Source: Clostridia bacterium (lineage in GTDB: Bacteria > Bacillota > Clostridia > Oscillospirales > CAG-272). From it: a stretch of 61,339 nt of DNA. The DNA lies in assembly GCA_017444735.1 (NCBI GenBank), contig JAFSWB010000001.1, positions 1 to 61,339 of the forward strand. The letters run 5' to 3'. Below are positions 1-61,339 of this stretch, piece by piece. The notes below the pieces were generated by a model that saw nothing but the letters and a program-made list of their open reading frames with translations, ran no database searches and was not told where the DNA came from. Numbering within the stretch: the stretch's first letter is position 1; every line of letters starts with the position of its first letter. The position numbers and the translations under genes were made by a program.

Positions 1-1
1 G

Positions 2-193
2 TATATCGTTACGAAGGATATTGTCAGAGCCGTCACGGTTATGGTTGTATTCTGCCCCTGCGCCCTCGTCCTTGCCACACCTACTGCGATAATGGCAGCA
101 ATCGGACAGGCTACCGGTGCCCTTGTTCATAATGCTGGTTCCTGTTTTGTTGTTTTGTTAGCGGCTCTTCTTTATGACCGGAAATACAATTGA
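2..193 (+). pseudogene. 3' part of a P1B heavy-metal P-type ATPase with a large in-frame internal deletion
   Basis: Frame 2 reads ...VTVMVVFCPCALVLATPTAIMAAIGQAT|GALVHNAGSCFVVLLAALLYDRKYN*. The CPC transmembrane motif is joined directly to the C-terminal HN helix and the DKTGT/N/P domains are absent. Confidence 0.75.
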
Positions 194-209
194 AACCCAA
201 AAAATAATA

Positions 210-246
210 ACGCCTCTGAGCCATATCGGCTCGGAGGCGTGTTTTT
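210..246 (+). terminator. Intrinsic terminator after ATPase remnant
   Basis: ACGCCTCTGAGCC-loop-GGCTCGGAGGCGT followed by GTTTTT. Confidence 0.6.
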
Positions 247-553
247 GCCACATCAACTCATCAAAAGCGTCACTTTCGATCTCGCTCATGTCCTCGATAG
301 GAAGAGACAAAATGCCAGTATGCGATTTCTATTTCGGTGCGGACAGCGTAACATTCGCCTTGCACGATTAGCAAGGATTTTTCGAGTTCAATATCTTCAA
401 TTAGCAGGAGCGCCTTTTTGATTAGCAAAAATGGAGTTTTTTTGCTAATTTCTATTAGCAAGACAGAAGATCAACCGTGATAATTAGCCACTTAATTGTT
501 TACAGTCTGTCCACCAATAAATGCAAGTGGAGTAGTAAGATTGGACGAAAACC

Positions 554-591
554 AAAAAAGCCGAAAACCCTTGAAAACAAAGGCTTTCGGC
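554..591 (-). terminator. Terminator downstream of tRNA-Arg
   Basis: GCCGAAAACCCTTG-AAAA-CAAAGGCTTTCGGC hairpin with a T-tract on the minus strand. Confidence 0.6.
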
Positions 592-599
592 GTTGTTTC

Positions 600-676
600 T
601 GGCACCCACGGGAGGATTCGAACCTCTGGCCTGCCGCTTAGGAGGCGGCCGCTCTATCCTGCTGGGCTACGTGGGC
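600..676 (-). tRNA. tRNA-Arg(CCT), complete, CCA encoded
   Basis: GCCCACGTAGCCCAGCAGGATAGAGCGGCCGCCT-CCT-AAGCGGCAGGCCAGAGGTTCGAATCCTCCCGTGGGTGCCA folds as a cloverleaf. Confidence 0.93.
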
Positions 677-751
677 GTGTGTACTTTTCAGGAACAATCT
701 CGAACTCTATAATGCCCGCTTTTCCTCCAAAGGCGATTGTTCCAACATAAC

Positions 752-791
752 CTTAGGAGGCGGTCGCTCTATCCTGCTGAGCTACGGAGAC
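752..791 (-). pseudogene. 5' half of a second tRNA-Arg(CCT), truncated just after the anticodon loop (att junction)
   Basis: GTCTCCGTAGCTCAGCAGGATAGAGCGACCGCCTCCTAAG; its acceptor strand (GTCTCCG) differs from the complete copy (GCCCACG). Confidence 0.85.
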
Positions 792-825
792 GTACCGATC
801 GGCGACTTTTCGGACGCCGGGTAAT

Positions 826-854
826 ATTTTATCACAATAAATACGCGTTTGCAA
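826..854 (-). promoter_or_regulatory. SigA-type promoter of the tRNA locus
   Basis: TTGCAA-17 nt-TAAAAT with TG extension on the minus strand. Confidence 0.65.
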
Positions 855-871
855 TACCCCGAGGCGTTTTT

Positions 872-15181: not shown

Positions 15182-15195
15182 ACTGCTGTTTGATG

Positions 15196-15290
15196 CGCGA
15201 TGATGCGGGAGGTTGCCGCAAGTCCCGTACTGTCAGGGGACGGCGGGGAATTTCCGCGGAGTATGTCCGGCAGAAGCCGGGCGGGGAACA
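15196..15290 (+). ncRNA. Firmicutes S10 (rpsJ) ribosomal leader
   Basis: GCGATGATGCGGGAGGTTGC...GGAATTTCCGCGGAGTATGTC resembles the conserved rpsJ leader of Bacillota; ends approximate. Confidence 0.6.
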
Positions 15291-38769: not shown

Positions 38770-38840
38770 CAGGGATATCAGGATTCGAACCTGAAACGAC
38801 AGAGTCAAAGTCTGTTGTGTTGCCATTACACCATATCCCT
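38770..38840 (-). tRNA. tRNA-Gln(TTG), CCA not encoded
   Basis: AGGGATATGGTGTAATGGCAACACAACAGACT-TTG-ACTCTGTCGTTTCAGGTTCGAATCCTGATATCCCTG cloverleaf. Confidence 0.93.
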
Positions 38841-61115: not shown

Positions 61116-61130
61116 AACGGCGACGGCGCG

Positions 61131-61339
61131 GGTTCGATTCCCGTATTCAATACCTACTGAAAAAAGCGCCCCGGGGGCGCTCTTTTTCAGCAGGTGACGG
61201 GAATCATCGCAGTCGCGCGGGCTCGCTTTTCGACGTTTCGAAAAGCTCACGCTCCTTTGGTCGCCGGGGCGGGCAAACAGTCCACAGGACTGTTTGCTTA
61301 CGCGCCCCGGTTCGATTCCCGTATTCAATACCTACTGAA
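61131..61339. repeat. Palindromic intergenic repeat, 178-bp period (second unit truncated by window end)
   Basis: GGTTCGATTCCCGTATTCAATACCTACTGAA at 61131-61161 and 61309-61339, with three hairpins per unit. Confidence 0.85.

Follow-up and report, generated by a model that had tools for sequence, protein, structure and literature searches.

The closest described systems differ in what integration does to the target tRNA gene. In canonical tRNA and tmRNA islands and ICEs, attP carries the 3′ part of the tRNA, and integration yields one rebuilt gene and a displaced 3′ fragment, according to the parts consulted of the Islander work (PMC4383910) and of a further report (PMC9897764). "tRNA-dependent lysogeny" has been shown experimentally for the actinobacteriophages Fionnbharth, LeBron, and Gaia (Guerrero-Bustamante & Hatfull 2024, PMC10865867). 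As set out in the sections of that paper used here, a tyrosine integrase acts on an attB within a tRNA gene, cores are 8–17 bp, the gene is not rebuilt, and lysogens are viable only with a phage-encoded tRNA of matching isotype. A possible case outside Actinobacteria cited there is prophage Lj965 of Lactobacillus johnsonii (PMC10865867). Tn6194-like ICEs of Streptococcus suis, Enterococcus faecalis, and Clostridioides difficile are described, in the portion of a report drawn on here, as 'integrated inside a tRNAArg gene' (PMC7168690).

Here we describe a tRNA-Arg(CCT) locus at one end of a 61,339-nt stretch of DNA from a Clostridia bacterium (contig JAFSWB010000001.1; "the window" below is this whole stretch), at which a 5′ tRNA half stands next to a complete tRNA gene of the same anticodon. 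Loci compared with it carry L numbers. The features of the locus, from the host side inward, are as follows.

826..854, minus strand: host promoter of the interrupted tRNA gene, TTGCAA-17-TAAAAT, TG-extended (consensus scan)
752..791, minus strand: host-derived 5′ half of tRNA-Arg(CCT), very probably the promoter-side junction, attL (alignment)
752..759, minus strand: common core CTCCTAAG, made up of the anticodon loop (7 nt) and the base that opens the 3′ strand of the stem
677..751, minus strand: spacer of 75 nt, very probably element-derived, with hairpin arms at 743–735 and 699–691
600..676, minus strand: complete tRNA-Arg(CCT), very probably element-borne, with an encoded CCA and acceptor stem GCCCACG/CGTGGGT (ARAGORN, Rfam)
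560..591, minus strand: intrinsic terminator of the element's tRNA cassette, a 14-bp stem and T run
341..555, minus strand: element arm with six KGCTAAT repeats (367–489), homologous to L043 and L006
135..340, no strand assigned: AT-rich DNA without a match, with a terminator-like hairpin at 210–240 readable on both strands
2..134, plus strand: part of a gene for a heavy-metal P-type ATPase, with the CPC membrane helix, running off the window (Pfam)

The first-pass annotation, made from the letters alone, had placed on the minus strand a promoter, a 5′ tRNA half, a spacer with an inverted repeat, a full tRNA-Arg(CCT), and a terminator, and every one of these was found where it had been placed. 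The promoter lies in a region homologous to two relatives with an empty site (L036 and L042). The 5′ half, a 40-nt stub reading from 791 to 752, has the 3′ terminus ...CGCCTCCTAAG and contains the acceptor 5′ strand GTCTCCG, the D arm, the 5′ strand of the anticodon stem, and the entire anticodon loop CTCCTAA; the sequence past the core at this junction is unrelated to a tRNA 3′ half. The spacer that follows holds a 9-bp inverted repeat, GGAACAATC (743–735) and GATTGTTCC (699–691). The full tRNA at 676–600 is called by ARAGORN and scores 54.9 bits against the Rfam tRNA model (threshold 29), and ARAGORN calls no tRNA at the stub, nor at the integrase-side junctions described below. GC content is 0.38–0.44 over 135–599, versus 0.60 in the adjoining host genes. 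A window-wide look for the far end of an element found neither a second T-arm plus acceptor complement nor a third CTCCTAAG-type site in a tRNA context; T-arm-like repeats at 61126–61339 were considered as a far end and rejected, being part of something else. The remaining ~60 kb of the window is ordinary Clostridia chromosome. Just upstream of the site lie genes for ApbE, a NusG-II protein, and a heptaprenyl-synthase-like membrane protein, and the window also holds trmD and an S10 ribosomal protein leader.

The stub and the full copy align with 35 of 40 positions matching, and three of the five differences fall in the acceptor strand. Two related genomes have an intact tRNA-Arg(CCT) gene at this site, and the stub agrees with their 5′ halves at 37/40 and 38/40 positions; it is identical to the stub of L049. 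Taken together, these matches exclude a chance resemblance to tRNA. The stub's acceptor strand laid against the 3′ strand of the full copy gives three Watson-Crick pairs, three G-U pairs, and one mismatch, as against six Watson-Crick pairs, one G-U pair, and no mismatch for the full copy's own two strands, which bears out the earlier suggestion that the two are distinct alleles.

To see the same chromosomal site in other genomes, we fetched 80 loci by synteny with the neighboring ApbE protein of the window as the query (the best ApbE match is 60% identical). Four of the 80 have a tRNA-Arg(CCT) sequence at the same site, downstream of the same operon; two of these sites are empty and two are occupied. 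In each of the empty sites, L036 and L042, there is one tRNA-Arg(CCT) gene, intact and of the same allele as the stub (GTCTCCG...CGGGGAC, with G as the discriminator and CCA not encoded), and a terminator comes after it. The first-pass annotation had held that a stub-plus-full arrangement in relatives lacking the AT-rich DNA would count against an insertion, and these relatives carry one intact gene each. Homology of the window to L036 and L042 ends at 752; homology to the occupied locus L043 extends from 864 down to 341. L043 has a stub, a spacer, a different full tRNA, a terminator nearly the same as that of the window, and the repeats, and past these a small ORF, ParA, and ParB. A direct alignment of the occupied locus L043 with the empty L042 covers 2,834 bp at 86.6% identity and ends at position 2826 of L043, which is the end of CTCCTAAG. 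The attB lies within the host tRNA gene, which is intact in L036 and L042 and broken at the anticodon loop in occupied sites. The contig of L049 breaks off within the spacer, and what it has of stub and spacer matches the window without a difference, next to a host flank that does differ, an identity that could partly stem from graph paths common to metagenome assemblies.

The arrangement recurs well outside these relatives. A blastn search of window positions 1–870 against a plasmid collection returned three records, apparently chromosome-like (Subdoligranulum variabile OY725843.1, NZ_OY725736.1, and Pusillibacter faecalis NZ_AP023421.1), and each has a stub, a 70–115-nt spacer, a full tRNA-Arg(CCT), a terminator, and GCTAAT or GCTAAC repeats. 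The stubs in these three records are different alleles, and each downstream tRNA has an acceptor stem of its own. Counting all six occupied sites, there are three host alleles (GTCTCCG, GCCCTCT, and GCCTCCG) in hosts with a GC content of 0.35–0.60. A full tRNA-Arg(CCT) is present in the window, L043, L001, L002, L003, and L004, and the six element tRNAs have six different acceptor stems, all five of those checked pairing fully; pairing of the host 5′ strand with the element 3′ strand leaves at least one mismatch in five cases of five. What stays constant is the core. CTCCTAAG closes the host part at five of six stub junctions (the window, L049, L043, OY725843.1, and NZ_OY725736.1), being decayed in NZ_AP023421.1, and it opens the host part at all five integrase-side or attR-like junctions (L007, L005, L092, L093, and L010). 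The replacement tRNA lies 70–122 nt from the core and is co-oriented with the host promoter. The same or nearly the same terminator-like stem-loop stands 3′ of the element tRNA in L004 and L043, with a near-copy past the junction in L005, and L004 has ParA and ParB as L043 does. The Subdoligranulum element has its integrase gene on the other side of the core, convergent with the tRNA, and keeps the order and orientation of core, spacer, and tRNA, which fits transcription from the host promoter as the constraint on this layout; a search of that record for the 3′ half or a far end found neither. In the Pusillibacter record, the stub pairs poorly (5/7, by our own reading) with an attR-like 3′ half 16 kb away.

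The far end is seen in relatives. The most complete view comes from NZ_OY725736.1, labeled Monoglobus pectinilyticus (loci L006 and L007), which holds a 50-kb conjugative element with both junctions. At its start are the stub, core, 115-nt spacer, full tRNA, terminator, and repeats. The body encodes ParA/ParB, a SpaA-type pilin, MobC, a relaxase, PcfB, VirD4-like and VirB4-like proteins, a sortase, and a CHAP domain protein, along with the resistance genes tet(O/32/O) and tet(40), and the annotation of the record lists no phage structural genes. At its end come HTH_17 proteins, a tyrosine integrase, repeats, the core, and a 3′ tRNA half with the host terminator, the HTH_17 proteins and integrase being ~50 kb from the first core. 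The second core CTCCTAAG lies ~345 nt beyond the integrase stop codon and is followed by GGCTAGTCACGTGTTCGACTCACGTAGAGGGTGCCA and a terminator. Brought together, the two separated halves form an acceptor stem of six Watson-Crick pairs and one G-U pair and an anticodon stem paired at 5/5 positions (read off the sequence). The 8-bp core is all that the two junctions have in common, and both tRNA halves are orphaned. Between its two att junctions the element has an integration module, relaxase, coupling protein, and type IV secretion ATPase, the make-up of an ICE.

Three faecal virome scaffolds (L005, L092, and L093) show the integrase side in the same form, with element DNA, CTCCTAAG, and the 3′ half in that order. 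In L092 and L093 the junction lies downstream of an integrase, and these two proteins share 73% and 70% identity, respectively, with the L007 integrase (487 aa; Pfam Phage_integrase, 5.7e-15), which has a homologue in L008 as well. As to the family of the L007 protein, only generic tyrosine-recombinase models matched it, below their cut-offs, and its similarity to the structures of the Tn1549 integrase is distant (E = 2.6e-5). A missing 3′ half beside an integrase gene had been predicted for the far end, and at the level of the family that is what these junctions contain. The exact 3′ acceptor strand forecast, CGGAGAC, came out nearly right: the nearest empty sites read CGGGGAC, which replaces one predicted pair with a T-G wobble.

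We consider it very probable that positions 341–759 of the window are the promoter-side junction (attL) of an integrative element, of a family to which conjugative elements of 50 kb from gut and rumen Clostridia also belong. The tyrosine integrase would recombine the 8-bp core CTCCTAAG of the element with the same 8 bp of the host tRNA-Arg(CCT) gene, its anticodon loop and one further base, strand exchange taking place within the anticodon loop or at its edges; in the window, the sequence comparisons put the probable exchange site at 752–759. The anticodon loop has reportedly been named, by Williams in 2002, as a sublocation for tRNA-targeting integrases. Because only 8 bp are shared, the host gene would stay unbuilt at both junctions, its 5′ half remaining by its promoter and its 3′ half moving to the far end, adjoining the integrase gene. 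The element would compensate with a complete tRNA-Arg(CCT) and a terminator of its own, 70–122 nt inside the junction and in the orientation of the broken gene. A disrupt-and-replace mode of integration through a short core, as first proposed from the window alone, is thus supported by the breakpoints, by the empty sites, and by the far end in relatives.

What the window itself retains of such an element is another matter. Recognizable element DNA amounts to about 410 nt (341–751), homology to related elements ends at ~341, and the window ends ~600 nt beyond the tRNA. In a tblastn search of 21 element proteins from L006 and L007 against the window, none matched (0/21), as follows from the presence of at most 750 nt of element DNA. 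Positions 135–340 had no match among the fetched loci or in the plasmid or phage collections; the hairpin at 210–240 was found by the scan on the plus strand, and the T-rich run on the other strand was read from the sequence. The ATPase fragment (Pfam E1-E2_ATPase, 29.4 bits) is cut off before the phosphorylation domain, and PDB alignments of its 63-aa frame to copper and zinc ATPases mostly end near residues 42–46. It occupies the place that ParA-side genes take in L043 and L004, so the copy in the window may be a remnant. Downstream of the site, L036 and L042 have genes other than ATPase genes, and a Roseburia plasmid that matches the fragment showed no element context.

One reading of these observations is that the element has been largely deleted, that only the left arm (341–751) is kept, and that the foreign tRNA is now the host's permanent tRNA-Arg(CCT) gene. 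It would account for the end of element homology at ~341, for the truncated P-type ATPase fragment ~200 nt further on, and for the 0/21 result, and it has a clear precedent in the remnant of Pusillibacter faecalis NZ_AP023421.1, where an intact element tRNA accompanies a decayed stub, ParA is truncated to 83 aa, and ordinary metabolic genes come next. Against it, the DNA visible past the tRNA is only 600 nt, related intact elements also diverge from each other right after the repeats, the stub of the window is undecayed (its D stem intact and its sequence identical to the L049 stub), and the window may simply end at an assembly break in a repeated cargo gene. We regard this reading as nearly an even call, leaning slightly against it. 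The fuller scenario, in which a broad-host-range conjugative family lands on the 8-bp tRNA-Arg(CCU) anticodon loop, decay leaves the foreign tRNA as the host's only copy, and the window is a fossil of this process, we put forward as a tentative and somewhat doubtful proposal. If the fossil reading were true, a core translation gene would have been permanently swapped for a foreign allele, recreating a landing site for the next element.

The remaining alternatives concern whether an element is there at all or what it did to the gene. A chimera, in which the reads of two organisms were joined at a conserved tRNA sequence, deserves mention, as the window may be metagenome-assembled and L049 breaks off within the spacer. 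We judge it very unlikely: the same junction is found in six independent assemblies, including the named strain Pusillibacter faecalis MM59, L001, L002, L043, and L049, and the spacer is not tRNA-like and hence offers no cause for a collapse. Two similar tRNA-Arg(CCT) sequences, 75 nt apart and in the same orientation, might also suggest an old tandem duplication of the host gene with decay of the upstream copy and no mobile element. Against this, each empty site has just one gene, which is of the stub's allele, the downstream copy differs in its acceptor stem and shares its terminator with elements in unrelated hosts, the stub ends exactly at the core in five of six independent sites, and the complete relative has its missing 3′ half 50 kb away, beside an integrase. 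Host homology that breaks off as at an insertion breakpoint effectively excludes duplication and decay, and we give this explanation almost no weight. A canonical island, in which 676–600 would be the rebuilt hybrid of host 5′ and element 3′ parts and the stub an unrelated leftover, would be the usual result for tRNA-targeting tyrosine integrases as the consulted parts of two reports present it (PMC9897764, PMC4383910), and is hardly credible here, where the 5′ half of the full gene differs from the host allele at 5/40 positions and pairs with its own 3′ strand, the host promoter lies upstream of the stub and not of the full gene, and host homology ends at 752 and not within the full gene.

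On the reading of an inserted element with a replacement tRNA, the question arises of how that tRNA is expressed. A promoter-like site lies upstream of the stub in all five sites compared (the window, L043, L001, L002, and L003) and within the spacer in one of the five (L002); none was found on the tRNA strand of the window spacer. From this distribution, it would appear that the host promoter usually drives transcription through the stub into the replacement tRNA, which normal tRNA processing then frees. Two further proposals of the first-pass annotation would follow the same lines: a tRNA half would be co-transcribed, and AGG decoding by this tRNA would depend on the element. That dependence may be weak, as a tRNA-Arg(UCU), if present, could read AGG; AGG occurs at ~8 per 1,000 codons in a crude ORF set.

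Two roles were considered for the spacer and rejected. One was that of a promoter, given that only one of five spacers has a promoter-like site. The other was that of a structured RNA: the hairpin in the window folds as predicted, its energy is not unusual (z = −1.3), and the stub and spacer together give z = 0.0. The L043 spacer folds unusually well (z = −2.8), and its stem falls in the same alignment columns as the window hairpin, with five pairs changed on both sides. Beyond the terminator, all six matches to KGCTAAT in the window lie within 367–489, within 123 nt past the terminator. Similar clusters stand 3′ of the tRNA in five other elements, and repeat pairs are found on the integrase-side arm, between the integrase gene and the core. 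Their placement suggests that the integrase or a partner protein binds the GCTAAT repeats as arm-type sites; on this reading, the tRNA cassette would sit inside the attachment region.

The layout suggests a means of combining site-specific integration with a wide host range, as the anticodon loop alone needs to match, and the hosts seen here run from 35% to 60% GC. A broad host range is a likely benefit of carrying a tRNA, because host 5′ and element 3′ strands would mispair in five of five cases; with its own tRNA, the element could enter hosts whose tRNA would not make a working hybrid with an element-supplied 3′ half. The locus also offers a concrete route of tRNA gene turnover, with foreign alleles taking the place of host tRNA genes. 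Island-mapping methods that expect a rebuilt gene and a 3′ fragment would probably miss or misplace such elements, and a 5′ stub adjoining a full tRNA gene of the same anticodon provides a simple search signature. The family bears on antibiotic resistance as well, one complete element carrying tet(O/32/O) and tet(40).

Compared with known systems, the nearest relatives of this strategy are the phages of tRNA-dependent lysogeny, to the extent that the consulted sections of PMC10865867 describe them. Like them, the present elements have a tyrosine integrase (here in relatives) and an attB in a host tRNA gene, a core too short to rebuild the tRNA (8 bp here, 8–17 bp there), and an element-encoded full tRNA, with putative arm-type sites flanking the core. 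At the sequence level, the present case appears to show all four of the criteria by which tRNA-dependent integration is recognized, some of them only in relatives. Unlike the actinobacteriophages, the complete relatives carry conjugation genes and not phage genes, the hosts are Clostridia and not Actinobacteria, and the target is tRNA-Arg(CCT), as opposed to the Lys, Ile2, and Leu tRNA genes reported in those sections. The Fionnbharth tRNA is described there as lying elsewhere in the phage genome, overlapping gene 37 and with its own promoter; here 70–122 nt separate the core from the tRNA, which is in line with the host promoter.

Prophage Lj965, as portrayed by the paper that cites it (PMC10865867), is similar in being a Bacillota element whose target tRNA is reportedly not rebuilt at the junction and which encodes the cognate tRNA; by that second-hand description it is a prophage and not a conjugative element. 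Canonical tRNA and tmRNA islands and ICEs, as presented in the consulted parts of Islander (PMC4383910) and PMC9897764, likewise have a tyrosine integrase at one end and a crossover within a tRNA gene. Unlike the outcome given there, both halves are orphaned here and a whole extra gene is supplied. Tn6194-like ICEs, going by the passage available from PMC7168690, are also Bacillota conjugative elements inside a tRNA-Arg gene and not at its 3′ end; their conjugation module is described as Tn916-related, and the likeness, drawn by description only, is best taken as a lead. In the main texts of the open-access literature that we searched, we found no conjugative element described as bringing a substitute for the tRNA gene that it breaks. 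The principle of the strategy is already known, having been published for actinobacteriophages in the work consulted in part here (PMC10865867). This analysis extends the breaking and replacing of a tRNA gene from phages of Actinobacteria to conjugative elements of gut and rumen Clostridia, and what is new is the conjugative type of element, the host phylum, the target tRNA, and the position of the tRNA, at the junction and in the orientation of the host promoter.

The host tRNA-Arg(CCT) stub and the spacer of the window recur at 100% identity, over 106 nt, in an occupied site of a relative (L049, 6107–6212). The host flank there is unlike that of the window (ApbE 57% identity), and the contig stops within the spacer. 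This identity reflects either one element that recently spread among hosts with a common tRNA allele, or shared assembly paths. In the complete related element of NZ_OY725736.1 (L006, 38782–41969), the record annotates tet(O/32/O) and tet(40); genes for a MazF-type toxin, DNA polymerase IV, and regulators of the ImmA/IrrE type are also present.

The integrase gene is placed differently in two of these elements. It lies at the far end of the NZ_OY725736.1 element (L007), whereas in Subdoligranulum variabile (OY725843.1, 766–2690) it directly follows the tRNA cassette and is convergent with it; the two integrases share 62.6% identity. The 3′ tRNA half was not found in the 75.8-kb Subdoligranulum record. 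The locus in Pusillibacter faecalis (NZ_AP023421.1, 230–16300) is an element remnant, in which the stub has decayed, the element tRNA is intact, and ParA is reduced to 83 aa and followed by genes of pyrimidine and amino-acid metabolism. At a distance of 16 kb there is an attR-like junction (..GGCCTT, then CTCCTAAG, then a 3′ half) that has no integrase. Because only five of the seven positions in its acceptor strand can pair with the stub, the stub and this attR-like half may derive from different events.

A spacer hairpin is common to the window (691–743) and the occupied site L043 (2834–2890), in the same alignment columns, and five of its pairs differ on both sides between the two. Its loop contains CGCCTT(T/A)GGAG..AAAAGCGG and, in sequence, resembles an anticodon arm with the 8-bp core inverted. 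A shorter hairpin occupies a comparable place at two further loci with the element tRNA (L002 and L003), and perhaps at a third (L001).

Away from the tRNA cassette, the window holds ordinary host features, which place the organism in Clostridia:

15191–15284, S10-Clostridia ribosomal protein leader (37.3 bits)
38770–38840, tRNA-Gln(TTG)

The leader stands at the start of a long same-strand gene block. At the left edge, a heavy-metal P-type ATPase reading frame (2–134, plus strand) ends just past the CPC membrane helix and is followed by a terminator-like hairpin (210–240). This frame, which occupies the place of the ParA-side genes in related elements, may be cargo or else part of a gene that a rearrangement left behind. 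At the right edge, a 36-nt direct repeat (61126–61161 and 61304–61339; 94% identity, 178 nt apart) contains a T-arm-like GGTTCGATTCCCG, and its second copy reaches the last base of the window. Its match to the tmRNA 3′ end in Rfam is weak (13.9 bits, far under threshold). The repeat may mark another integration site or an island boundary.

In a faecal virome scaffold (MT837101.1, 3900–4110), the integrase-side junction has a 3′ tRNA half and a terminator that, with the ~100 nt beyond them, look like an element-type tRNA cassette rather than host DNA. This suggests that the tRNA of an earlier element was the insertion target of a second one. With insertion into an element-borne tRNA, the replacement tRNA would recreate the landing site.
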